24,000 nt of DNA from Acidobacteriota bacterium (GCA_032160705.1 JAVHVE010000001.1:92113-116112), one strand, 5' to 3'; counted from the stretch's first letter, positions 954 through 22,720 are shown. Translations and numbers: made by a program. The notes: a model not told the origin generated them from the letters alone.

Positions 954-1100
954 GTCGAAATCTGGTTGAATCTCCTCATGTGATTCGGCCAGTTGCAGTG
1001 ACTCTTCCACGGAACTCTCGTTGTTAGACCTTGCCCCGGGTTGTTAGATTTTTACAGCTACCTAGATCATAGCCAGCACGGTTTTCGGTCGGTAAGGTCA

Positions 1101-2648
1101 ATGTCTTATTCGCATTTATCAGATAATCCATCCAACAATTCAGCCATGCCCGTATCATTGCCCTTAGCGTCAATGGTCAGGGCCTTGTGTCAGGCGGCTA
1201 CGGGCGGCTCTGATCAACTCTACGAGGTAATGATCAAGCTAACGTTAATGGTTGACGCAACAGCCCATACCTACGGCCTTGCGACCTGGACGCAAAAAGT
1301 TGGCGAGCGGCCTCGGCTGAAATGGGTCGAGGGGTTAGAGCAAAATGAGATTATGGATGCGGAAGTTGTCGTCACAGATGCTCTCTCAGTATTAAAAGAG
1401 GCGGTTGAGATTAAAGCAGGCGATCAGCATATCTGCATGGTACTTGTAACCACAAGCCTCAATCGCGAAGGGACGGCTATCTATGGTCGCTGTGTCCGCC
1501 CGCTCACGGAAATGCAGGCTAAAGAACTGAGGCTACTCTCAGATGTCGCGCAGCTAGCTCATGCGCATGTCGCGCTGCTTGGTGATCAGCAGCGACATTT
1601 TAAGACACAATCACTTCCGGCTATGGACGATGCAACACTCCCCGGCATGGTCTTCGTCAGCCGTGCAATGGCGACGGTGGCGCGCGCGATTGAAAGAATC
1701 AAGGACTCGGACTCCACTGTCTTAATTTCGGGTGAATCGGGCACTGGAAAAGAATTAGTCGCGCGAGCAATTCATCGCTTGAGCCGTCGGTGCCAAGGTG
1801 AGTTTATTCCTTTCAATTGCACCGCCGTACCTGCGGACTTGATTGAGAGCCTGCTCTTCGGCCATCGCAAAGGCGCATTTACGGGGGCGCATGCAGACCA
1901 CGAAGGAATGATCCGAGCTGCGGAAGGTGGAACGCTTTTTCTGGATGAGATTGGTGATCTGCCTGCCACTTTACAGCCCAAGCTCTTACGTTTTCTTCAG
2001 GAGGGTGAAATTCATACGCTCGGTGAGCGTGCGCCACGCAAAGTTAATGTCCGTGTTGTCGCCGCCACGCACAAGGATTTAGAGCGTGAAGTTCGTGAAG
2101 GACGTTTCCGTGAGGATTTATATTATCGGATAGCCTCACTCTCAATACATATTCCGCCGCTCAGGGAGCGTCCTGAAGACACGTCTGCGTTGATCTCACA
2201 CTTCTTGACACACTATGCGCGGCGCAACGACCGCGCGATTACCGGCATTACTTATGATGCCATCCGTGCTCTTCAAAATTATTCATGGCCGGGTAATGTG
2301 CGTGAGTTGGCGGCGGAGATTGAACGTCTGGTGCTTTATGCAGACGAAGGAAGCTATATCGGCGTTGAAGACCTCAACTCACGCATCCTTCCTGAACAGG
2401 CATTGACTGCGATGCAAGCGAGCGCTTCACCTGCGGACCTGGATCACATGATGGAAGATTTCGAGAGGCGCATCATCACAGAAACGCTCAGGCAGCATGA
2501 TTGCAACGTGGCGCGAGCAGCCGATGCGCTCGGCCTCGGCTCGCGTCAGACGCTCTACAAAAAGCTCAAGCGTCTGGCGATTGATATTGGAGATTTCCTT
2601 CAAGAGGACACAGAGCCCGGTCTACAATTGCGCCCCGAACGTCGCTGA
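1101..2648 (+). CDS. Sigma-54-dependent transcriptional activator (bacterial enhancer-binding protein): N-terminal sensory (GAF-like) domain, AAA+ domain, Fis-type HTH
   Basis: Walker A GESGTGKELVARAIH. GAFTGA sigma-54 contact loop (HRKGAFTGAH). Walker B TLFLDEIGDL. ESELFGH-like LIESLLFGH. C-terminal HTH NVARAADALGLGSRQTLYKKLKRL. The ORF track starts at TTG 1041. I prefer ATG 1101 (MSYSHL...), preceded by taagg 4 nt upstream, but the start is uncertain. Confidence 0.9.
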   Translation: MSYSHLSDNPSNNSAMPVSLPLASMVRALCQAATGGSDQLYEVMIKLTLMVDATAHTYGLATWTQKVGERPRLKWVEGLEQNEIMDAEVVVTDALSVLKEAVEIKAGDQHICMVLVTTSLNREGTAIYGRCVRPLTEMQAKELRLLSDVAQLAHAHVALLGDQQRHFKTQSLPAMDDATLPGMVFVSRAMATVARAIERIKDSDSTVLISGESGTGKELVARAIHRLSRRCQGEFIPFNCTAVPADLIESLLFGHRKGAFTGAHADHEGMIRAAEGGTLFLDEIGDLPATLQPKLLRFLQEGEIHTLGERAPRKVNVRVVAATHKDLEREVREGRFREDLYYRIASLSIHIPPLRERPEDTSALISHFLTHYARRNDRAITGITYDAIRALQNYSWPGNVRELAAEIERLVLYADEGSYIGVEDLNSRILPEQALTAMQASASPADLDHMMEDFERRIITETLRQHDCNVARAADALGLGSRQTLYKKLKRLAIDIGDFLQEDTEPGLQLRPERR

Positions 2649-2657
2649 CAATTCTAC

Positions 2658-3182
2658 TTGGACATCCTGAAAGCAAACTCATACCTCGTGCCCATTTCTT
2701 ACCTTCTGTCTTTCATAGTCGCGCTTCTGATCCATGAGCTAGGCCATCTTGTAGCGGCACGCGTCTGCCACGTGACTGCGACGGAGTTCGGTCTGGGATG
2801 GGGGCGAAAGCTCTTCGGCTTTCACTTCGGCGGCGTTGCGTACAAGCTGCATGCGCTTCCCGTCGGAGCATACGTTCGGCTGGACATGGCGGAGTTGCAG
2901 CGACGCTCGCTCAGCCGGCAGGTTTTGATCTTGCTGGCTGGCATTATAGTCAATTTGGTCGCCGCCACGCTCTCCGCAGGCACTCCCTTCGGTACAGTGA
3001 ATCTGCTGCTGGCAGCCACGAACCTTCTTCCGCTCTACCAGCAGGATGGTTGGAAATGCGGAATGGTGATGTTGCGCGCGCTCGTGCGACGCAAGAGTGC
3101 TGTTGTTGAATGGACGTTCACCATTGCGGGAAGCAGTGTTAGCCTCGCGCTCATCGCTTTCTTAGCCTTGCGCCATCTTTAA
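2658..3182 (+). CDS. Mini site-2 protease (peptidase M50 family) integral membrane metalloprotease, no PDZ domain
   Basis: HExxH zinc motif in a TM helix (LLIHELGHLVAARV), followed by the M50-typical FGLGWG...LHALPVGAYVRLD. Second M50 motif NLLPLYQQDGWKCG (NxxPxxxxDG). About 4 predicted TM segments. It starts 9 nt after the regulator stop. The TTG start is uncertain (GTG 2688 is possible). Confidence 0.7.
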   Translation: MDILKANSYLVPISYLLSFIVALLIHELGHLVAARVCHVTATEFGLGWGRKLFGFHFGGVAYKLHALPVGAYVRLDMAELQRRSLSRQVLILLAGIIVNLVAATLSAGTPFGTVNLLLAATNLLPLYQQDGWKCGMVMLRALVRRKSAVVEWTFTIAGSSVSLALIAFLALRHL

Positions 3183-3992: not shown

Positions 3993-4148
3993 ATGATTAA
4001 GAAATTTCTTCGCGATGAAACTGGTCTTGAATTGTCGGAGTACGCCGTCGCCGCCGCGCTCGTCGCGCTCGCAGCCGTCGCCGCTTTCCAACTGCTTGGC
4101 AAGAACATCGGCGTCAAGATCGACTCGCTGGCTAACACAATCAAATAA
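3993..4148 (+). CDS. flp: Flp/Fap-family type IVc pilin (51 aa)
   Basis: My translation: MIKKFLRDETGLELSEYAVAAALVALAAVAAFQLLGKNIGVKIDSLANTIK. Classic Flp leader ending in G, then E5-Y6 of the mature peptide and a hydrophobic helix. RBS aaaggag is upstream. Too short for the ORF track. Confidence 0.9.
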   Translation: MIKKFLRDETGLELSEYAVAAALVALAAVAAFQLLGKNIGVKIDSLANTIK

Positions 4149-4175
4149 GGGCGCGAGCCGTAAAGGAGCATGAAA

Positions 4176-4334
4176 GTGATTAAGAAATTCCTGAACGATG
4201 AGACGGGCCTTGAATTGTCCGAGTATGCCGTCGCCGCCGCGCTCGTCGCGTTGGCAGCCGTCGCGGCCTTCCAGCTTCTTGGTGGAAATATCGGCACCAA
4301 GATTAACGAACTGGCGGGCAAGATCGTCCCCTAA
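4176..4334 (+). CDS. flp: Flp/Fap-family type IVc pilin, tandem paralogue (52 aa from GTG 4176; ATG 4170 also in frame)
   Basis: My translation: (M)IKKFLNDETGLELSEYAVAAALVALAAVAAFQLLGGNIGTKINELAGKIVP. The N-terminal two thirds are near-identical to flp1 and the C-terminus diverges. RBS aaaggag at 4162-4168 favours GTG 4176. Confidence 0.88.
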   Translation: MIKKFLNDETGLELSEYAVAAALVALAAVAAFQLLGGNIGTKINELAGKIVP

Positions 4335-7726: not shown

Positions 7727-8845
7727 ATGAGTGTCAGGGAAAGAAAGACAGACAGAAAAAGTGAGCGCGGATCGGTTCTGGCGACCGCCACACTCGGCAT
7801 GCTGACCCTCCTTCTCGCCGTCGGACTGGGCGTTGACATCAGCCGCATGTACCTGACGAAGACCGAATTGCAGAACGCGGCGGACGCGGCGGCGCTGGCC
7901 GGAGCATCGGGCTTGAACGGTTCAGGAAACGGAATCAAAACAGCGACGGATCGCGCCGTGCAAGCGATGAACAACTACGCCTTCAACAAGACGAATGTTG
8001 TCATCCCGCGCACGAATGTTACGTTCGCCGTCAACCTCGACGGGCCATACATGAGCGAGAGTGCGGCTGCGGCTGCGGCGACAAACATTCGCTTCGTCCG
8101 CGTCTCCACTCCCGATCTGCCGTCCAGCGTCACCTTTGCCGCGCCAATCCTCGGCGATAAACGAAACCTGGCGGCGACAGCGACCGCCGGTCTCTCAGTT
8201 CCAATTAACGTCTTCTGCAACTGGATTCCGCTCTCTGTCATTGACTACGACATCCCGATGGTTCCGGGCCAGGTCTACACGATTCGCTCTGCGCCCGGCA
8301 ACAAAGTCTCTCCGGGAAACTATCAGATTCTCGCCGTTTCGGGTCGCGGCGGCAAAGACGTGCGCGAAGGTCTGGCGAGCGGCGTTGACGAATGCGCCGA
8401 GCCGGGCGCGACCTATACGATTGATACCAAGCCGGGCGTCAGCGCTGGCCCGGTCAGGCAGGGCATCAACACGCGCTTCGATGATTACCAGGGCGGGCAG
8501 GTCAATCCGACGGATCATCCGCCCGACACGAACGTCAAGAACAACATCACCTACGACCAATATCGTGACGGCACGGCCACGCAAGCGCCGACGCATACGG
8601 GCGTGCCCGGTCGCCGCATAGTGATTATCCCGATTGTCAAATTAGCTGAGTACGACCAAGGCAGAGACACTGTGAAGTTCAACCGCTTCGGCCAGTTCTT
8701 CCTGCGCTCCAAAGTCGGCAACGGCAACGGCGGCGACATCGAGGCCGAGTATATAGACGACATCGTCGTCGCCGGTAAAGGCGGCTACAACCCGAACGGC
8801 GGCCCGACCAATAACCTGATGGCCGTTCCTGTGCTTTATAAATAG
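7727..8845 (+). CDS. tadG: TadG-like pseudopilin / pilus assembly protein
   Basis: N-terminus ERGSVLATATLGMLTLLLAVGLGVDISRMYLTKTELQNAADAAALAGA is the typical TadG-like N-terminal segment. RBS gagaggagg is upstream. No VWA domain seen in this copy. Confidence 0.8.
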   Translation: MSVRERKTDRKSERGSVLATATLGMLTLLLAVGLGVDISRMYLTKTELQNAADAAALAGASGLNGSGNGIKTATDRAVQAMNNYAFNKTNVVIPRTNVTFAVNLDGPYMSESAAAAAATNIRFVRVSTPDLPSSVTFAAPILGDKRNLAATATAGLSVPINVFCNWIPLSVIDYDIPMVPGQVYTIRSAPGNKVSPGNYQILAVSGRGGKDVREGLASGVDECAEPGATYTIDTKPGVSAGPVRQGINTRFDDYQGGQVNPTDHPPDTNVKNNITYDQYRDGTATQAPTHTGVPGRRIVIIPIVKLAEYDQGRDTVKFNRFGQFFLRSKVGNGNGGDIEAEYIDDIVVAGKGGYNPNGGPTNNLMAVPVLYK

Positions 8846-8892
8846 GGCGCTTCTTTCAGATTTTTTCAGAAATCAAACTTTGCGCTTCACGA

Positions 8893-9399
8893 ATGAGGGG
8901 AAGCAAAACGATGAGGAGACATGGAAAGATAACGAGGGGGTTTTTCAGCTTCGCACGCGAAGAACGCGGCGCGCAGCTCGTCGAGCTGGCAATCGTGCTG
9001 CCGATCTTCCTCGTGATGTTCGGCGCAGCCGCAGAGTTCGGACGTTACTTCTACGAATACACCACGCTCGACAAGGCCGTGCGCGCAGGCTCGCGCTATC
9101 TCGCCACCGCCGCAGTCAACGCGGCAGAGGACACAAAGGCCAGGAACATCATCGTCTATGGCAATCCGACGGGCACGGGCACGCCCGTCATCAAGGGATT
9201 GACGACGGCGAATGTCGTTATCACGCGCGCGGGCGGCGTTCCGGTTCTGCCGCAGACGGTGACGGTGCAGATTACGGGTTACAAGTACCAGCCCGTGTTC
9301 GATCTCGGCAAGCTCATCAAAGTCCCATCGCTCTCTCTGAACATTGATGTCAAGCCGAGCGTCACGATGCGCTACCTGCTGACGCAGCCGCCGATTTGA
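8893..9399 (+). CDS. tadE: TadE-like minor pseudopilin
   Basis: TadE N-terminal motif ERGAQLVELAIVLPIFLVMFGAAAEFGRYFY. An alternative start at ATG 8911 has better RBS spacing. Confidence 0.85.
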   Translation: MRGSKTMRRHGKITRGFFSFAREERGAQLVELAIVLPIFLVMFGAAAEFGRYFYEYTTLDKAVRAGSRYLATAAVNAAEDTKARNIIVYGNPTGTGTPVIKGLTTANVVITRAGGVPVLPQTVTVQITGYKYQPVFDLGKLIKVPSLSLNIDVKPSVTMRYLLTQPPI

Positions 9400-9460
9400 A
9401 TAGTCAGTTTTCAGATGGAATGCAGGACTGAAGACGAGGATGGACGGGGAGTCGTAGAGA

Positions 9461-9928
9461 ATGGTTCGCTCCAGAAGAGAAAGAAGAACTGAACGCGGCG
9501 CGACTCTTGTGGAGTTTGCCATCGGCGCGACCGTTTTCCTGACGGCCATGTTCGCCGTCATAGAGTTTGGCCGCGCCCTCTGGACGCACAACGCTCTGTC
9601 GGACGCGGCGCGGCGCGGCGCACGCTACGCTGTCAATCATAAAGGGCCGGACGTTGCCAATCCGGCGGGCGACGTTGCCGCCGTGAAGAACGTCGTCGTC
9701 TATGGCGACCCTTTGGGTGGCTCGAAACCAGTGGTTGACAATCTGACGACCGCCAACGTTCAGGTGCAATACTCAAACTTCGGACTCGGCGCGGGGACGG
9801 TCTCGGTGAGCATCACGAACTATAAATTCCAATTCATCATCCCCATCGTCGGCACAACCATCTCGATGCCCAACTACAACACGACGCTGACGGGCGAAAA
9901 CGCGGGACTTGTCCCGCCGAATCTTTAA
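9461..9928 (+). CDS. tadE: TadE/TadF-like minor pseudopilin (second copy)
   Basis: TadE N-terminal motif ERGATLVEFAIGATVFLTAMFAVIEFGRALW. It shares the later motif V(I/V)VYG(N/D)P.G...P(V)(I/V)..LTTANV with the preceding gene. Confidence 0.85.
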   Translation: MVRSRRERRTERGATLVEFAIGATVFLTAMFAVIEFGRALWTHNALSDAARRGARYAVNHKGPDVANPAGDVAAVKNVVVYGDPLGGSKPVVDNLTTANVQVQYSNFGLGAGTVSVSITNYKFQFIIPIVGTTISMPNYNTTLTGENAGLVPPNL

Positions 9929-9929
9929 T

Positions 9930-10018
9930 CAGTTTTCAGTTTTGAGTTTTCAGTTTTCAGTAAGAATTGAAGACTGGCGACTCGGAACTGAAAACTGAAA
10001 ACCGAAAACTGAAAACTG
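9930..10018. repeat. Heptamer-repeat hairpin element E2: (CAGTTTT)-type x4.5, 25-nt loop, (AAAACTG)-type x4.5
   Basis: Positions 9930-9961 pair with 9987-10018, about 32 bp with one 2-nt internal mismatch (GAGTTTT opposite AAAACCG). It starts 2 nt after the tadE stop and ends 3 nt before the cpaE ATG. Confidence 0.9.
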
Positions 10019-10021
10019 ACC

Positions 10022-11239
10022 ATGATTACATTCGTCATCCTGAGCACCGGCCTTGATACCTTTAAGGAGATTCGCAGCGCCCTGGCGAGCGACGCGCGAG
10101 CGCGTTTGCTGGCGGGCGGCGACGACGCCGAGCAGGTTTATGCGGAGATTAAGAACCTGCGCCCCTCGGCGGTTGTCATCACGATGTCAGAGGCGAATTC
10201 CGAGCAGGCGTTGAAGATGATTGTAAAGCTTTCTGCCGAAAGCCCGCAGATTGCGATCATCTCAGCCGTCCGCAACGCCTCGCCCGATCTGATTCTTCGT
10301 AGTATGCGCGCCGGAGCGCGCGAGTTTTTGCGACTCCCCATCATCGCTGAAGAATTCAAGACCGTGCTCGACCGCACAGTAGAATTTTGCGCCGTACAGA
10401 AGGAAGCGCCGAAGAAGAAAGGACGCATGATCGCGGTCTTTTCCAGCAAGGGAGGCTGCGGCACATCCTTTATCGCTACCAATCTCGCCGCCGCGTTGAA
10501 TGCTCCGACGATGCTGGTTGATCTCAATTTGCAGGCGGGCGACCTGCCGCTCTTTCTCGGAGTCGAGCCGAAATATTCCATCGCCGACATGGTTGAGAAT
10601 CGCGCCCGCATGGACGACTCCTTGCTGGCGAGCTACGTCACGCCGCACTCGTCGAAATTGTCGCTGCTGGCCGCGCCGCGCGAGGCCGATTCGGCGGATG
10701 ACATCGAGCCTGAGCATGTCTTCGAGGCATTAGAGCGCGTGCGCGAATCTTACGATTACGTCGTGCTCGACCCGCAGCACACGTTCGACGCCATCACGCT
10801 CGCCGCGCTCGATCAAGCGGACGACATCGTGCTGGTTCTCACCCTCGACATCCCGGCCATTCGCAGCGCGCAACGCGCACTGGAAATCTTCGACCGGCTC
10901 GGCTACCCGCGCAAGAAAGTCCGTATCATCGTCAATCGCTGGAGCAAGCAGATTGATCTTGATTTGCGGCAGGTCGAGCGATTCCTGAAGGAGAAAGTGA
11001 CGGGCTTTGTGTCGAGCGACTATCAAATGGCGGTCACGTCCATCAATCTCGGACAACCGCTTGTTCAGTCAGAGCCTTCGTCGAAAATCGCCGTCGAGAT
11101 TAAGCGCATTGTGGCGACACTGATGGGCGCATCCGCTGAAAGCATAGAGGAGCAACCGCAGCGCAAGAAAATCTGGGGGGCGCTCTTCAAGCGCAACAGC
11201 GGCGCAGCGCAAAATCTTGATCTCCGCCCAACTCCTTAA
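10022..11239 (+). CDS. cpaE: CpaE/TadZ: receiver-like N-domain plus atypical ParA/MinD-type ATPase domain
   Basis: Deviant Walker [20 protein letters not shown] keeps the KGG signature Lys but has Thr where the P-loop Lys sits in MinD (KGGVGKT), as described for TadZ. The CheY-like N-terminal fold pattern and position before cpaF also fit. Confidence 0.88.
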
Positions 11240-11295
11240 AACGCTCTCAACCAGGTGAGAGCGCAGAAACGAATCAAAACGGAAGACCACACATT

Positions 11296-14758: not shown

Positions 14759-15703
14759 ATGCGTAGACGCACAATCATCGCCATCGCTATCGCCGCCACC
14801 CTGTGCTTCGGTGTCACGGCCTTCTGGAGCGCGCAGACTACTTTGCGCGACGGTGAGACGGACGCCAACATCGTCAGCGATGCGGGCGCGAAGACGGGTT
14901 CAAACATGGAGAAGAAAAAGGACGGCAATCGCGTCGTGAAAGTTTTGACCGCGCCGTTTCGCGCCTTTCGTCGTCTCTTCGGTGGAGGAAAAGATGAGGG
15001 CAAGCTTCAACACCTCAGCGAAAAGGATGTCGAGAAATTTGAGAGCACAGGGATGGCGCGCATCAACGACAGCCGTAACCCTGCGGAAGCGAAGCCGAGC
15101 GCGACAGGAACTGCCCGCGATCATCTCTCGCTGGGACGCATGTTCCTCTCAGCGGGGCGCATCAACGAGGCAATTTCAGAACTCTCGCTCGCCGCTTCGC
15201 TCGACCCGCGCCTTGCGGAAGCTCACAGCCTGCTTGGCCTCGCCTACGACCGCAAAGGCATGCACGACCGCGCGAAAGATGCTTACGACCGCGCGATCAA
15301 AAACGACCCTGAAGATGCGCAGACGCTCAACAATCTGGGCTTCTCGCTCTACCAGAACGGCAACTACCGCGCCGCCGTTGACAAGTTGAAGCGCGCCGCC
15401 CGCCTCGCGCCGACAGACGGGCGCATTCTGAACAATCTAGCCCTCGCGCAGATTCGTCTAGGCAAAACGGACGACGCTTACAAGAACTTTGCGCGCGCAG
15501 GCGGCGAAGTGACAGGCCATCTCAACACCGCTTCCATGCTCGAACGCCTCGGGCGCGAGGACGAAGCCATCAAGCACTACGAAGCCGCGCGCCGCGCTCA
15601 GCCGAACTCGATTACCGCGCTCAGTCGCCTGGCAGACCTCTACCGCCGGACAGGACGCGGCAACGAAGCTCAGGCGGCGCAGATGGCGCTTGCCGGAAAT
15701 TAA
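14759..15703 (+). CDS. tadD: TPR-repeat protein, TadD-like
   Basis: N-terminal signal/anchor, then several TPR units (e.g. AHSLLGLAYDRKGMHDRAKDAYDRAIKNDPEDAQTLNNLGFSLYQNGNYRAAVDKLKRAARLAP). Located after tadC. RBS aaaggag is upstream. Confidence 0.8.
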   Translation: MRRRTIIAIAIAATLCFGVTAFWSAQTTLRDGETDANIVSDAGAKTGSNMEKKKDGNRVVKVLTAPFRAFRRLFGGGKDEGKLQHLSEKDVEKFESTGMARINDSRNPAEAKPSATGTARDHLSLGRMFLSAGRINEAISELSLAASLDPRLAEAHSLLGLAYDRKGMHDRAKDAYDRAIKNDPEDAQTLNNLGFSLYQNGNYRAAVDKLKRAARLAPTDGRILNNLALAQIRLGKTDDAYKNFARAGGEVTGHLNTASMLERLGREDEAIKHYEAARRAQPNSITALSRLADLYRRTGRGNEAQAAQMALAGN

Positions 15704-15735
15704 AAGCCGAACGTACGACAGAAGGAAAATTTTCC

Positions 15736-17085
15736 ATGACGCATACAGGGATTCTGACGCGGACTGAAATCGAGAGCATGGGGCCGCCCGTGCCGGAAGA
15801 GATTGCCGACACGGGTGTGTCTGAAGGTTTCTTGTGTGATCTGGCGCTCAAGCACGTGGCGATGCTGGCCGAACCGACGACCGGAGCGGTCGCAGAAAGG
15901 CTTCATCTTCCGCGCACTCTCACAGAAGAGTTGTTGCAGATACTCTACCGCGAAAAGCTGATTGAAGTTCGCATGCAGACCACGCCGGGCTCGACGCGCT
16001 ACGCGATGCTGGATCACGGCTGGGAGCGCATGGCGCGCCTGCAAGCGATGTGCGGTTACACAGGCGCTGCGCCGGTCTCTCTGAAAGATTACGCGCACAT
16101 GATGCGCCTTCAGGCGATCCCTTCGCATCCGGCCTCGATGGAGACCGTGCGCGCGGCCTTTCGCGATCTGGTGCTGCCCGATTCCTTGCTGCAAACGCTC
16201 GGCTGCGTCATCAATTCACGCCGCTCGCTCTTTCTGACGGGGTTGCCGGGAACGGGTAAGACTGCCGTGGCGGAACGCATCAACTCGGCGCTCCCCGGCG
16301 CGATCTGGATTCCCTATGCCATCGAGATTGACGGTCAGATTATCCGTGTCTTCGATTCGCACTCGCATCGCGTCGTGCCCGAAGACCAGACGCCGATGGA
16401 GCACGACCGTCGCTGGGTGCACATTGAGCGCCCGCTGATTGTCGTCGGCGGCGAATTGACACTGGAGAACACAGACCTCGTCTGGTCGGATGTCGCAAAG
16501 TTTTATGAAGCGCCGTTTCAGATGAAGTCGAACGGCGGAACGCTGGTCATTGACGACTTCGGACGACAGCGCGTCGCGCCGCAGGATTTGCTCAATCGCT
16601 GGATTGTTCCCTTAGAGCGGCGCATGGACTATCTGGCGCTGCACACGGGCAAGAAAATCGAAGTTCCTTTCGAGCAGCTCGTGCTCTTTTCCACCAATCT
16701 TGAAGAGAAGGATTTGGCCGACGAAGCATTTTTGCGGCGCATGGGTTATCGCGCACGCGTCGAGCCTCCGACGCCTGCGGCTTACGTTGAAATCTTCAAG
16801 CGCGTGGCTTACACACGCGGCATCAAGTGCGATCAGACCTGCCTCGATCACATTTTGAACAACTACATGATTGAGCATCGCCAGATGAAAGCCTGCGAGC
16901 CGCGCGATCTGCTCGACCGCGTGACCGACATCTGTCTCTTCGAGGGGCACACGCTTGAGCTTAATCCGAAACTGATTGACGTGGCCTGGCGTAACTACTT
17001 TGGCGCATCGCACGGCTTCTCGACGCAAGCACCGTCGGCGCGCCAGACGGGCGAGCTTGTGCTGGACGAGCCGTTGCAGATTTGA
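15736..17085 (+). CDS. AAA+ ATPase (MoxR/AAA_5-like core) with a ~170-aa N-terminal winged-helix-like domain; function unknown
   Basis: Walker A LFLTGLPGTGKTAVAERI and Walker B GTLVIDDFGRQ. Then LNRWIVPLERRMDYLALHTGKKIEVPFEQLVLFSTN...DEAFLRRMGY, which mirrors the MoxR pattern (LLE..E.r.v...G....vPf..lv.aTqN ... A.ldRf). It starts 32 nt after tadD. Confidence 0.8.
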   Translation: MTHTGILTRTEIESMGPPVPEEIADTGVSEGFLCDLALKHVAMLAEPTTGAVAERLHLPRTLTEELLQILYREKLIEVRMQTTPGSTRYAMLDHGWERMARLQAMCGYTGAAPVSLKDYAHMMRLQAIPSHPASMETVRAAFRDLVLPDSLLQTLGCVINSRRSLFLTGLPGTGKTAVAERINSALPGAIWIPYAIEIDGQIIRVFDSHSHRVVPEDQTPMEHDRRWVHIERPLIVVGGELTLENTDLVWSDVAKFYEAPFQMKSNGGTLVIDDFGRQRVAPQDLLNRWIVPLERRMDYLALHTGKKIEVPFEQLVLFSTNLEEKDLADEAFLRRMGYRARVEPPTPAAYVEIFKRVAYTRGIKCDQTCLDHILNNYMIEHRQMKACEPRDLLDRVTDICLFEGHTLELNPKLIDVAWRNYFGASHGFSTQAPSARQTGELVLDEPLQI

Positions 17086-17153
17086 AGTAGCCACGCCTGA
17101 TTTAACGAGCGCCAGAGCGCCTCCCCTTGTTTGTCCGAAAGGAAAGAGAGCAG

Positions 17154-18365
17154 ATGACCCGAAAAAATTCCCCCCGCCGAGCGTTGGTTTTATCCGGTGC
17201 AGCGGTTTTTCTGTGCGCGGGTTTGATGGACGTGTCCGCGCAGGAAGTGTTGCCCCTGACGCTTCGCCAGTCGCCTGCGAGTGCGGCTCATGCGGCGCAA
17301 ACGCCGGGCGCGCGCCATGCTCTGGTGAAACCGGCGAAGAAACGTCTGAGCCGTCGCCGTCTGGTTAAAATCAGAACGAGAGCGGGCGATACCCTCAGCT
17401 TGCTCGGTGATCGCTTCGGCGCTTCGGCTCAGGAGATTGCGGATGTGAACGGCCTCGCTCCTTTCGCGCAGCTTCCACCGGGAAGCGAGCTTTTAATTCC
17501 GCTGCCCTCGCCTGAAATCTTAGCCAGAACCCCGGATGAAAAACTGGCTCAACACAACGGTGGCATTTCACTTGGCATGAACAGCGTTGCTTCTGCCGAG
17601 ACGGAAGCCGCCTGGGAGAATGTGCAGGGCGTGTGGTTCAGAAAAGGAAGTGAAAGGAAAGCGTCAAGCGAGACACCGTCAAGCGGGGTGGTGGAAGTGA
17701 GCGAAGCCGAGCGCAGCACCAGAGCGCAGCCGGTCTGGATTTTTCTTGTCGGAGGGGCGCGCGTCGAAGCGGATTCGGTGAACGAGACGACGGAAGGCGT
17801 CTGGTACACGCGAGGGCTGCTGACCATCTTCATTGAACGCTCGCGTATCGAGCGGATTGAACGTGAGCGCGTGAGCGCCGTTGCGACCGATGCGCCTTCG
17901 TGGACGGAGCGAGGTTGGACAACCGGCAATCAGCAGTTTGACGCGCTCATCAGGGAAAACGGTGCGCGCTACAATGTTGATCCCTACCTGATTTTCTGCG
18001 TGATGGAGCAGGAGTCGCAATTCAAACCCAGCATCGTCAGCCCGAAGGGAGCGCGCGGGCTGATGCAGTTGATGCCGGGGACGGCAGCGCATTTCGGCGT
18101 GCGTCGTCCCTTTGACCCGGCGGAAAATATCATGGGCGGCACAAAATACCTGAAGCAGTTGCTCGAAAATTTCAATGGCCGAGTTGATCTCGTGCTCGCC
18201 GGGTACAATGCGGGTGAAGGCGCGGTGATGAAGTACGGCGGAAACGTGCCGCCCTACAGGGAGACGCGCAACTACGTCCAGCGCATCAGCAAACGCTACG
18301 GGCAAAGCAGGTCTGCTACGCCCGTGCCCGCGGCGGAGACGACTGCGGCGGCAGGAATGAGGTAA
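17154..18365 (+). CDS. Secreted LysM-domain lytic transglycosylase (SLT / GH23 family)
   Basis: Signal peptide (ALVLSGAAVFLCAGLMDVSAQE). LysM (VKIRTRAGDTLSLLGDRFGASAQEIADVNGL). SLT motifs with the catalytic Glu context (FCVMEQESQF; GARGLMQLMPGTA; AGYNAGEGAV). The ORF track starts at TTG 17127. I prefer ATG 17154, preceded by aaaggaaagagag. Confidence 0.88.
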   Translation: MTRKNSPRRALVLSGAAVFLCAGLMDVSAQEVLPLTLRQSPASAAHAAQTPGARHALVKPAKKRLSRRRLVKIRTRAGDTLSLLGDRFGASAQEIADVNGLAPFAQLPPGSELLIPLPSPEILARTPDEKLAQHNGGISLGMNSVASAETEAAWENVQGVWFRKGSERKASSETPSSGVVEVSEAERSTRAQPVWIFLVGGARVEADSVNETTEGVWYTRGLLTIFIERSRIERIERERVSAVATDAPSWTERGWTTGNQQFDALIRENGARYNVDPYLIFCVMEQESQFKPSIVSPKGARGLMQLMPGTAAHFGVRRPFDPAENIMGGTKYLKQLLENFNGRVDLVLAGYNAGEGAVMKYGGNVPPYRETRNYVQRISKRYGQSRSATPVPAAETTAAAGMR

Positions 18366-18474
18366 GGAGCAAAGGGTTTAAGTCAAAGGTTAGCTTGAGT
18401 TTTTGAAATAGTCACTGAGTTAAAAGTGTCTTTGAATTGGGACGCGTAACTGTAAACTTGAAAGTGAATGCCCT

Positions 18475-19227
18475 ATGAAAAGTATATCTATCAAACTCTC
18501 ACTCATTCTCGCGCTCTGTTCCTGCCTGAGTTATCCGGCGTTCGCGCAGCAGAGCAGGGAAGCGCCGTTGACAAATTCCGCTGTCATCAAACTTGTGAGG
18601 GCAGGATTTAAGGAAAAGACTGTCATCGCCATCATCCGAAGCCGTCCCGCGCAGTTTGACCTTTCGCCCGACCGCTTAATCGAACTCAAGCGAAGCAATG
18701 TCAGCGAGAACATCATCCTCGCCATGCTCGCCCTGGGCGACACGGAGTTTGCGACAAACGATGATGATTGGGGCAGCGATCCTTTCTTCAACGATTCGGC
18801 GGGCACAAAAAAAGGGAACAAAGCACCCGACGGCGGTGTGGACATTTTCGGGATGAGCGGCGGCTCAAACAGTCGCACTCAGCGGCGCGGGCCTGATGGG
18901 TCGAGCGGAGGCGACACGCAGACGACCGGCAGCGCTACGGTACGCATCGTGCGCCCGCCGCTTGAGGCTGGCGGCAAACCTACGCTTGAAAAAACTCCGA
19001 CGCTGACCAACGACTCAATCGTGGAATTGGTCGAAGCCGGATTCTCTGAAGGCACGATCATTCGCCGCATCGAAAACGCGCCAGTCGAGTTTGATCTCGC
19101 CCCGCCCAAGCTCGCCGAGTTGCGCCGACACCGCGTCTCAGAGCGCATCATCGCCGCCATGACCACCGCGATGAGCGACGATTCGACGCAAGGCGCAAAG
19201 CCCGCGGGCAACACGCCGGAAAATTAA
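18475..19227 (+). CDS. Secreted hypothetical protein with two copies of a ~54-aa domain separated by a Gly/Ser/Asp-rich linker
   Basis: Signal peptide (LILALCSCLSYPAFA|QQ). Repeat 1: LTNSAVIKLVRAGFKEKTVIAIIRSRPAQFDLSPDRLIELKRSNVSENIILAML. Repeat 2: LTNDSIVELVEAGFSEGTIIRRIENAPVEFDLAPPKLAELRRHRVSERIIAAMT. No named family recognised. Confidence 0.7.
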   Translation: MKSISIKLSLILALCSCLSYPAFAQQSREAPLTNSAVIKLVRAGFKEKTVIAIIRSRPAQFDLSPDRLIELKRSNVSENIILAMLALGDTEFATNDDDWGSDPFFNDSAGTKKGNKAPDGGVDIFGMSGGSNSRTQRRGPDGSSGGDTQTTGSATVRIVRPPLEAGGKPTLEKTPTLTNDSIVELVEAGFSEGTIIRRIENAPVEFDLAPPKLAELRRHRVSERIIAAMTTAMSDDSTQGAKPAGNTPEN

Positions 19228-19231
19228 GTTG

Positions 19232-20356
19232 ATGCACAGCCGACAGAGGAAGACGAAAGGGAAGCGCGCGGGAATGAGCGAGACAAAAGACCGGAAGCGA
19301 AAGTTTCTCTATTGCGCGAGCCTGTTATTACTCTCTCTTCTCTTTCTCTGTTCGTCGCCCGCTCAGGCGCAGGCCAACAGGCAAGCTAACGCTTCTCCAA
19401 AACCTACGCCTGACGGAGATGAGATTGATGAAGGCGATGTCATTTCCGTCAGCACTTCGGAAGTGATGTTGCCTGTGACCGTTCGTGACGCGAGCGGCCA
19501 GCTTGTGACCACGCTGACGCGCGAGCACTTTCGCGTCTTCGAGGATGGACGCCTTCAGCCTTTGAGCGATCTGGCGCTCAGGCGCGTCCCCGTGGATGTT
19601 GTCCTGATGGTGGATGCTTCTTCGAGCGCCGCCGCCAACCTGGAAGACTTTCAACGCGCCGTCGAGGGCTTCGCTACAAACCTCGGAGCGGAAGACCGCA
19701 TTAGCCTGATTAAATTTGACGACCGCGTAGAACTCTTGCAGGACTGGACGCAGAGCCGCGTGCAGTTGCGCCGGAGCTTACGCCGCATCGTGCCGGGTAT
19801 GTTTACGCGCTTCAATGATGCCTTGCTCCTGGCCGCGCGCGAGCAACTGGCTCATGCGCGCGGGCGACACGCCGTGATCGTCCTGACCGACGGCATTGAT
19901 AGCGGGCGCGGCTACAGTACGCTCGAATCGGCGTTGCGTGCTTTACTCGAAGCGCAGGCCACCATCTATGTTGTCAGCAACACAGAGATAGAGCGTCAAA
20001 AGAAGAGCGCGGAGCTTGATTCTTTACTGGCTTCAACTTCTTCTTCTTCAGTCGCTCGCTTCAACGAGCTGCGCATCAATGACCTGCGCGAGGGCCTGCG
20101 CGTGCTGGATTTGAGCGAGCGGAATCTGGCGCAACTGACGGCGGCGACCGGGGGCAGGCTTTATAAGCCTTCGAGCTTTGACGAGCTGGATGCGACCTAC
20201 AGGGAAGTCGCGGAGGAGTTGCGCCACCAGTACGCGCTCTACTACACGCCTCTAAATAAAACGCGGGATGGGCGGTTTCGCCGTGTGCGGGTCGAAACAA
20301 CGACTCCTTCACAGAAAGTCTCTGCGCGCATCGGCTATTTCGCTCCCGGCAGATGA
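19232..20356 (+). CDS. Secreted von Willebrand factor A (VWA) domain protein with MIDAS motif, Acidobacteria-type VWFA-related family
   Basis: Signal peptide (...LLFLCSSPAQAQA). N-terminal beta-rich segment ISVSTSEVMLPVTVRDASGQLVTTLTREHFRVFEDGRLQPL, typical of the Acidobacteria-expanded VWFA-related domain as I remember it. MIDAS DxSxS (VLMVDASSSAA). VWA core (AVIVLTDGIDSG; TIYVV). Start is ambiguous (TTG 19229, ATG 19232, ATG 19274). Confidence 0.85.
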   Translation: MHSRQRKTKGKRAGMSETKDRKRKFLYCASLLLLSLLFLCSSPAQAQANRQANASPKPTPDGDEIDEGDVISVSTSEVMLPVTVRDASGQLVTTLTREHFRVFEDGRLQPLSDLALRRVPVDVVLMVDASSSAAANLEDFQRAVEGFATNLGAEDRISLIKFDDRVELLQDWTQSRVQLRRSLRRIVPGMFTRFNDALLLAAREQLAHARGRHAVIVLTDGIDSGRGYSTLESALRALLEAQATIYVVSNTEIERQKKSAELDSLLASTSSSSVARFNELRINDLREGLRVLDLSERNLAQLTAATGGRLYKPSSFDELDATYREVAEELRHQYALYYTPLNKTRDGRFRRVRVETTTPSQKVSARIGYFAPGR

Positions 20357-20585
20357 TCCCTTTAAGAGTCGTCACCCTCATTCGCAGATTTCCTCAATAA
20401 ATCACCTGATTCTTGAAGGGCAGGGGTCACAAAGCCCGCGCTTGCCGGGAAATAGACCTTCGTTGGTGTCATAATGCCACGACCTCTAATGAATGTGAAG
20501 GTGTGGGCTCATGTGACTCGCCAACCTCGCCTGTCGGTATCACGAAAAATTCTCCCTTTCAAATTAAGTTCTATCATTCCTTCAC

Positions 20586-20614
20586 TTGACTAATAGCTCT
20601 GAACGCGGCATAGT
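20586..20614 (+). promoter_or_regulatory. Candidate sigma-70-type promoter for the radical SAM gene (TTGACT, 17-nt spacer, CATAGT)
   Basis: The hexamers and spacing were read directly. It lies about 75 nt upstream of ATG 20690 (RBS ggagaagga) in a 333-nt intergenic region. Confidence 0.3.
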
Positions 20615-20689
20615 CATTGCTCTTGTGAGACTGCCGTTCTGCGAACTGCGTCTGTCTAAAGCAATTTATAACCCGGAGAAGGAAAATTC

Positions 20690-22720
<2,031 letters not shown>

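Follow-up and report, generated by a model that had tools for sequence, protein, structure and literature searches.

A conserved AAA+ ATPase gene and three genes for exported proteins downstream of tadD in an acidobacterial tad locus

Tad pili, whose set of core genes is considered well established, drive adhesion and the formation of biofilms in many bacteria. We analysed a stretch of 24,000 nucleotides (nt) from an Acidobacteriota bacterium (GCA_032160705.1, JAVHVE010000001.1:92113–116112; hereafter the window), in which a complete tad locus is followed on the same strand by a block of four further genes (15736–20356). These encode a cytoplasmic AAA+ ATPase and three exported proteins: a predicted lytic transglycosylase with LysM and SLT domains, a 250-residue protein with a duplicated domain, and a protein with a VWA domain. 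Gene content, operon-like packing, conservation, topology signals, fold and catalytic motifs were observed here. The reading that we favour, with a probability of roughly 0.6, is that of an older, Tad-linked cytoplasmic AAA+ accessory to which a younger exported trio, specific to Blastocatellia, has been added.

Several known systems resemble parts of the block. Dedicated lytic transglycosylases open the peptidoglycan for type III and type IV secretion systems (T3SS and T4SS), flagella and some type IVb pili, and include VirB1 (T4SS), EtgA (T3SS), FlgJ and SltF (flagella), PilT (R64 thin pilus) and BfpH. The enzyme predicted here resembles them in being a family-1 SLT protein with E-S, GLMQ and YNAG motifs that is encoded within the operon of the machine; by contrast, the TXSScan Tad gene set contains no lytic transglycosylase, and the enzyme adds a LysM domain and a middle region of about 150 residues without annotation. 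In the type II secretion system, ExeA/ExeB (GspA/GspB) likewise combine an ATPase and peptidoglycan-binding proteins, encoded beside a type IV filament machine that includes a secretin. ExeA resides in the inner membrane and binds peptidoglycan through a periplasmic domain, whereas here peptidoglycan binding resides on the separate LysM-SLT enzyme and the ATPase has neither a transmembrane (TM) segment nor such a domain.

MoxR ATPases that work with VWA partners (NorQ–NorD, RavA–ViaA and CbbQ–CbbO) are likewise AAA+ proteins, with β-inserts at helix 2 and ahead of sensor 1 to which β-elements in the model of our ATPase may correspond, and the VWA gene lies in the same operon as the ATPase gene. 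However, the ATPase described here has an extra N-terminal winged helix-turn-helix (wHTH), and the VWA protein is encoded two genes away, exported and optional. VWA domains are also found in pilus proteins such as PilY1 and, in some species, TadG; the VWA protein of the window differs in having an ordinary Sec signal and no prepilin leader, and in being dispensable in several lineages. No relevant report of an AAA+, lytic transglycosylase or VWA module associated with Tad emerged from literature searches.

Architecture of the four-gene block

The block and the gap that follows it comprise the following features (HMM, hidden Markov model).

15736–17085, plus strand: 449-residue cytoplasmic wHTH-AAA+ ATPase of an unannotated family (motifs, AlphaFold2 model, fold search)
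15808–16053, plus strand: wHTH of the ATPase, about residues 25–106 (AlphaFold2 model)
16213–16770, plus strand: AAA+ core of the ATPase, about residues 160–345 (AlphaFold2 model)
16771–17010, plus strand: lid of the ATPase, about residues 346–425 (AlphaFold2 model; helices at residues 347–422)
Motifs of the ATPase: Walker A, G169–T176; Walker B, D273–D274; sensor 1, N321; arginine finger, R334/R335
17127–18365, likely start ATG 17154, plus strand: exported LysM-SLT protein, predicted family-1 lytic transglycosylase (HMMs, motifs)
17379–17501, plus strand: LysM domain (PF01476, 28.6 bits against a cut-off of 20.9)
17946–18248, plus strand: SLT domain (PF01464, 102.3 bits against a cut-off of 21.3)
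18475–19227, plus strand: exported 250-residue two-repeat protein (signal ..AFA|QQ; internal duplication)
18565–18735 and 19000–19170, plus strand: two repeats of about 57 residues, an unannotated domain, with a Gly/Ser-rich linker between them
19229–20356, alternative ATG 19232/19275, plus strand: exported VWA protein of the acidobacterial family TIGR03436 (HMMs, MIDAS-type residues)
20357–20689, no strand: non-coding gap of 333 nt, end of the tad-plus-accessory transcription unit

A preliminary description of this DNA, made from the sequence alone, had placed four same-strand genes after tadD and seen no terminator hairpin before 20356. The four plus-strand open reading frames (ORFs) are indeed preceded by gaps of 32, 41–68, 109 and 1–4 nt, as described; no terminator-like site was found in the intergenic gaps of the block and no inverted repeat of at least 10 nt occurs in 15600–20800. 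An Rfam scan of the block gave no match. The statement that these genes lie outside the canonical Tad set is likewise borne out, none of the four being present in the TXSScan Tad model, which represents that set, and the LysM-SLT, duplicated-domain and VWA/MIDAS assignments hold by HMM score and by a repeat score of 149.

Over about 30 loci, the median gaps inside the block are 37, 18, 43 and 6 nt. The VWA gene and the radical SAM gene downstream lie 380 nt apart in the median and never less than 246 nt (15 loci), and this wide gap marks the end of the operon. In the window, it contains a promoter-like σ70-type match at 20586–20614 for the radical SAM gene. As judged from gene spacing, the block is a genuine, probably co-transcribed 3′ extension of the tad operon. 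One spacing in the window departs from the clade: the gap before the duplicated-domain gene (18366–18474) is AT-rich and 109 nt long, against a clade median of 43 nt.

Conservation of the block in Blastocatellia

Synteny was assessed by searches of the six-frame ORFs of 162 loci (labelled L), for which the window proteins and profile HMMs derived from their orthologues served as queries. Loci with an ATPase at least 55% identical to that of the window were classed as Blastocatellia-type (n = 57). In these, the ATPase gene lies directly after the TadD TPR gene in all 47 loci with upstream flank. The SLT gene follows it in 40 of 42 cases, the SLT and duplicated-domain genes together in 32 of 33, and all three exported genes in 27 of 33. 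Co-occurrence with tad was the check put forward in the preliminary description, and the four families prove tightly packed across the whole Blastocatellia-type clade; outside Blastocatellia, the exported trio accompanies the ATPase in 0 of 74 distant loci, and the ATPase alone recurs with tad. Within the locus, the ATPase ranks second in median identity (80%), after TadA (83%) and above TadB, TadC and TadZ. The exported proteins evolve faster, with median identities of 54–67%.

Such an arrangement might reflect common descent with no Tad function at all, the ATPase being a housekeeping remodeller, the SLT protein an enzyme of the cell wall at large and the VWA protein one paralogue among many; the four genes would then be passengers in an ordinary lineage-specific operon extension. 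The radical SAM gene, which served as a control for synteny by descent, is unrelated and yet likewise syntenic across Pyrinomonadaceae, TIGR03436 is rich in paralogues, and most of the distant ATPase homologues occur in unrelated contexts (described below). However, the gaps within the block (medians of up to 43 nt, down to 6 nt at its last junction) are operon-like, whereas the radical SAM gene keeps its distance, and the block outlasts the synteny of that gene: the latter is limited to Pyrinomonadaceae, whereas the four genes stay together in the deeper loci L023–L030. Nor would chance adjacency predict an ATPase gene at three different tad junctions in separate lineages (47 of 47, 12 of 12 and two loci). 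We regard this explanation as quite unlikely.

The ATPase family outside Blastocatellia

The ATPase belongs to a large family. An exhaustive HMMER search returned 2,960 representative clusters, 712 of them at E ≤ 1e−30, and the latter align over nearly the full length, including the N-terminal domain, at 35–45% identity. Counting one genome per GTDB species, carriers amount to at least 599 species and span Acidobacteriota, Chloroflexota, Planctomycetota, Desulfobacterota, Nitrospirota, Verrucomicrobiota, Binatia, Melainabacteria and Myxococcota. Names in the databases are generic (‘hypothetical protein’, ‘AAA family ATPase’, ‘predicted ATPase with chaperone activity’, ‘PadR family’).

In a Vicinamibacteria-type clade, defined by an ATPase at least 58% identical to that of L060, the ATPase gene directly follows tadC in 12 of 12 loci with any upstream flank, and these tad loci hold none of the three exported genes. 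In two Planctomycetaceae loci, a TadG-like gene is immediately followed by the ATPase gene, which closes the operon, and looser links with tad are seen in one planctomycete-like and one deltaproteobacterial locus. Among 105 distant loci, the SLT, duplicated-domain and VWA genes were found after the ATPase in none of the 74 with flank, searches with profile HMMs included. Chance hardly accounts for an attachment at three distinct junctions (behind tadD, tadC and tadG).

The remaining contexts are diverse. In Anaerolineae, the ATPase gene is found with genes for pyruvate kinase, GDPD and diacylglycerol kinase. In Obscuribacterales (L049, L050, L059 and L066), it lies directly downstream of an operon for MoxR (AAA_3), DUF58 and transglutaminase (TgpA) proteins; the presence of the ATPase beside a true MoxR indicates that MoxR and this family coexist as distinct proteins. 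Clustering of the neighbours by BLAST gave mostly shadow ORFs and, after filtering, clade-specific neighbours only. One Desulfuromonas metagenome-assembled genome (L052) has two copies of the family in tandem (8336–9796 and 9812–11275).

Structure and affinities of the ATPase

The ATPase has the hallmarks of the AAA+ superfamily: Walker A and B motifs, sensor 1, an arginine finger and a C-terminal helical lid. The motifs begin at residues 169 (GLPGTGKT), 271 (VIDDFGRQ), 318 (FSTN) and 332 (FLRRM), and the key residues are invariant or nearly so among 52 diverse family members. There is no signal peptide or TM segment (maximum KD19 1.08), and the protein is probably hexameric. Pfam and NCBIfam recognize only the P-loop, below threshold (AAA_16, 26.8 against 32.6 bits), and sequence and profile searches of the PDB returned P-loop and generic classical-AAA matches only (midasin, spastin and p97).

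A shallow alignment of orthologues 79–93% identical gave an unusable AlphaFold2 model (pLDDT 48), and a diverse alignment was used instead, which yielded a confident one (pLDDT 91.8, pTM 0.87). In the model, β-inserts separate Walker A from Walker B, and residues 297–311 form a hairpin that precedes sensor 1. The model also contains a wHTH at about residues 25–106, in keeping with the preliminary description of the N-terminal part as winged-helix-like.

The top Foldseek match of the model is 8P49 (E = 5e−13, about 290 aligned columns), the Pyrococcus furiosus protein Q8U0N8, which also gives a weak direct sequence match. 8P49 is uncharacterised and lacks a Pfam assignment; it forms a hexameric ring, and its N-terminal domain is flexible. 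The likeness has its limits: 8P49 is archaeal, is 17–18% identical to the ATPase with a TM-score of about 0.46–0.6, and has no known link to pili. Archaeal LonB, BchI and RuvB come next, and the MoxR-family protein NorQ ranks 17th. The label ‘MoxR-like’, first given to the ATPase, does not hold at the level of the family. All MoxR models fell below their cut-offs (bpMoxR PF20030, 19.4 against 27 bits; AAA_5 PF07728, 19.3 against 22 bits) or did not match at all (AAA_3 PF07726), none of the NCBIfam MoxR models matched, and the fold is no closer to MoxR/NorQ than to 8P49, LonB, BchI or RuvB.

The wHTH raises the question of whether the ATPase is a regulator, which would bind DNA through this domain or act as a signal-controlled switch that sets tad expression or activity, with the exported proteins as independent accessories. 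Several features are compatible with this: some members are annotated as PadR-like in IMG; distant relatives carry an FHA (P0274 and P0282) or HDOD (P0268) signalling domain N-terminal to the wHTH, which hints at signal-controlled activity; Walker B reads DD in place of DE, a trait of switch-like AAA+ proteins; and σ54 activators flank several tad-linked loci, distant ones among them (L042, L054, L060 and L062). On the other side, the N-terminal domain ranges from neutral to slightly acidic among family members, with a mean net charge of −0.7, and its recognition helix is not basic, a charge from which DNA binding by the wHTH appears unlikely. The locus already encodes a σ54 activator, and no promoter or operator evidence was found, σ54 promoter matches in the window being at chance level (29 found, 27.7 expected). 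Overall, a regulatory role seems unlikely to us. As a separate matter, a phage-defence reading was considered and rejected, PADLOC and PHROG scans having given P-loop matches only (IetA).

The three exported proteins

The LysM-SLT protein begins with a hydrophobic segment and a Sec signal ending in ..VSA|QEV. Its SLT catalytic motifs are intact: counted from ATG 17154, E-S (within EQES) lies at residue 285, GLMQ at residue 302 and YNAG at residue 351. Together with the HMM matches, these motifs place the predicted enzyme in family 1 of the lytic transglycosylases. Its best NCBIfam match is a flagellar-assembly lytic transglycosylase. The LysM domain is not constant in this gene, the SLT orthologue of L002 (11370–12353) having 327 residues and no recorded LysM.

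The duplication in the 250-residue protein is genuine, with a local alignment score of 149 against 26 ± 5 for shuffled sequence, and its linker holds the conserved motifs DPFF, DIFGM.GGSNSR and TGSATVRI.RPP. The protein has no match in Pfam, NCBIfam, PHROG, PADLOC or the PDB. For the duplicated domain, Pfam gave no match even at E ≤ 10, and a search of the PDB with the repeat profile was also empty.

The VWA protein is a full-length member of TIGR03436 (187.4 against 81.25 bits, model positions 2–324 of 324) that also matches PF00092/PF13519. Its N terminus is signal-like and, numbered from ATG 19232, the MIDAS-type motifs are DASSS at residues 128–132, FTRFN from residue 191 and LTDG from residue 218. 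The gene is absent in L007, L018, L020 and L045, where the duplicated-domain gene directly precedes the next gene.

These properties bear on the proposal, made in the preliminary description, that the four proteins form one envelope-remodelling and chaperone machine, built either from a MoxR-class ATPase and a VWA/MIDAS partner or, like ExeA/ExeB, from an ATPase and peptidoglycan-binding proteins. In its favour, all four genes are packed operon-like with tad and its secretin gene, NorQ (in complex with the VWA domain of NorD) is among the fold matches, the P-loop gives a weak match to bpMoxR and the VWA protein has MIDAS residues. Set against this are the MoxR models below cut-off and the better fold matches of 8P49, LonB, BchI and RuvB. 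Topology is a further obstacle: the ATPase is cytoplasmic, the VWA and SLT proteins are exported, and the block encodes nothing membrane-spanning that could bridge the ATPase and the three exported proteins. Nor does the phylogenetic distribution agree, the VWA gene being missing from 6 of 33 otherwise complete loci and found in 0 of 74 elsewhere, and Vicinamibacteria-type loci having no exported genes. With a cytoplasmic ATPase and an exported, optional VWA protein, coupling of the MoxR–VWA or ExeA/ExeB type is unlikely; the latter analogy also founders on the lack of a TM segment and of any PG_binding Pfam match in the ATPase. The integrated machine thus described is in our estimation very improbable. 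A peptidoglycan-cutting LysM-SLT enzyme dedicated to Tad is a reasonable part of the proposal; the four genes, however, are not one co-inherited module.

A model for the function of the block

We therefore return to the reading of an older Tad-linked ATPase and a younger exported trio. From comparative genomics and predicted structure we infer every physical interaction and every effect on piliation in the model that follows. The ATPase would use its N-terminal domain to dock on the cytoplasmic side of Tad, at TadZ, TadA or the TadB/TadC platform, and spend ATP to remodel or gate the Tad machine. On the other side of the inner membrane, the LysM-SLT enzyme would cut a local gap in the peptidoglycan for the secretin and the pilus, the two-repeat protein may serve as a periplasmic partner or scaffold, and the dispensable MIDAS-type VWA protein may be a periplasmic or surface binding protein.

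A stronger form of this model is tentative, and we hold it to be somewhat unlikely: that the wHTH-AAA+ protein is an unrecognised conserved cytoplasmic component of Tad in Acidobacteriota and some planctomycetes, a second ATPase besides TadA/CpaF, acting to gate, remodel or recycle the motor itself, the platform or the pool of pilins.

Several observations weigh against a Tad-linked accessory with a dedicated trio. About 85% of the 105 distant ATPase loci are not near tad genes, and 81 sampled neighbours of distant ATPases yielded 70 Pfam families, each seen at most twice, and no common partner. Distant members with neither tad nor a conserved partner imply a basic activity of the family that is not specific to Tad. 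A rough neighbour-joining tree does not recover the tad-linked ATPases as one clade, so the link with tad either is old and was lost many times or arose more than once. Co-transcription is read from gene spacing alone, and the AT-rich 109-nt gap of the window could hold an internal promoter. Finally, TIGR03436 is highly paralogous in Acidobacteria, and the VWA gene may for this reason be a passenger.

An abundant soil phylum has fixed a strongly conserved AAA+ ATPase at the ends of tad operons in two deep clades, at different junctions, and one class, Blastocatellia, has added its own predicted peptidoglycan-cutting enzyme and two more exported proteins. Were the ATPase to act on the Tad machine, it would represent an accessory motor or regulator of a new class among type IV filament systems, and would offer a first clue to the function of a large orphan AAA+ family whose sole solved relative, 8P49, has no known function. 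The lytic transglycosylase would exemplify a dedicated wall-opening enzyme for Tad systems, the standard models of which have none.

The tad locus and neighbouring genes

The plus strand of the window carries a complete tad locus, with Pfam matches for every component; flp, tadV, rcpC/cpaB, the secretin gene, tadZ, tadA, tadB, tadC, tadD and tadE/F/G all lie in it, which makes it a canonical Tad/Flp locus.

1041–2648, plus strand: σ54 activator, heads the locus
3993–4148 and 4170–4334, plus strand: two tandem Flp pilin genes (51 and 54 residues; G/xxxxEY processing motif)
Between flp and tadD, plus strand: tadV prepilin peptidase, rcpC/cpaB, secretin, TadG-like, two tadE/F, tadZ, tadA, tadB and tadC genes
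14759–15703, plus strand: TPR protein at the position of TadD; its gene ends the canonical tad set and anchors the four-gene block upstream

The protein in the TadD position has multiple TPR Pfam matches, and its best NCBIfam match is a PilW-type TPR model, below cut-off. In L029 and L030, the deepest Blastocatellia-type loci, an insertion of 2.3–2.4 kb separates tadC from the TadD-like TPR gene. Both Flp genes fall below the length of the default ORF list. The σ54 activator has no recognisable receiver domain, and its N-terminal part of about 200 residues is unannotated. Between it and the flp genes lies a 174-residue multi-pass membrane ORF (2658–3182, plus strand) with a HELGH metalloprotease-like motif.

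Downstream of the block, the radical SAM gene (20690–22720, plus strand) encodes a protein of 676 residues with an HMPTM-type zinc ribbon. Among Pyrinomonadaceae loci it keeps 82–94% identity, and in all of them its gene is a transcription unit of its own. Of the NCBIfam models it best matches that of the tetraether lipid synthase Tes (323 bits, short of the cut-off of 450), and the protein is a candidate membrane-spanning-lipid enzyme in an acidobacterium.

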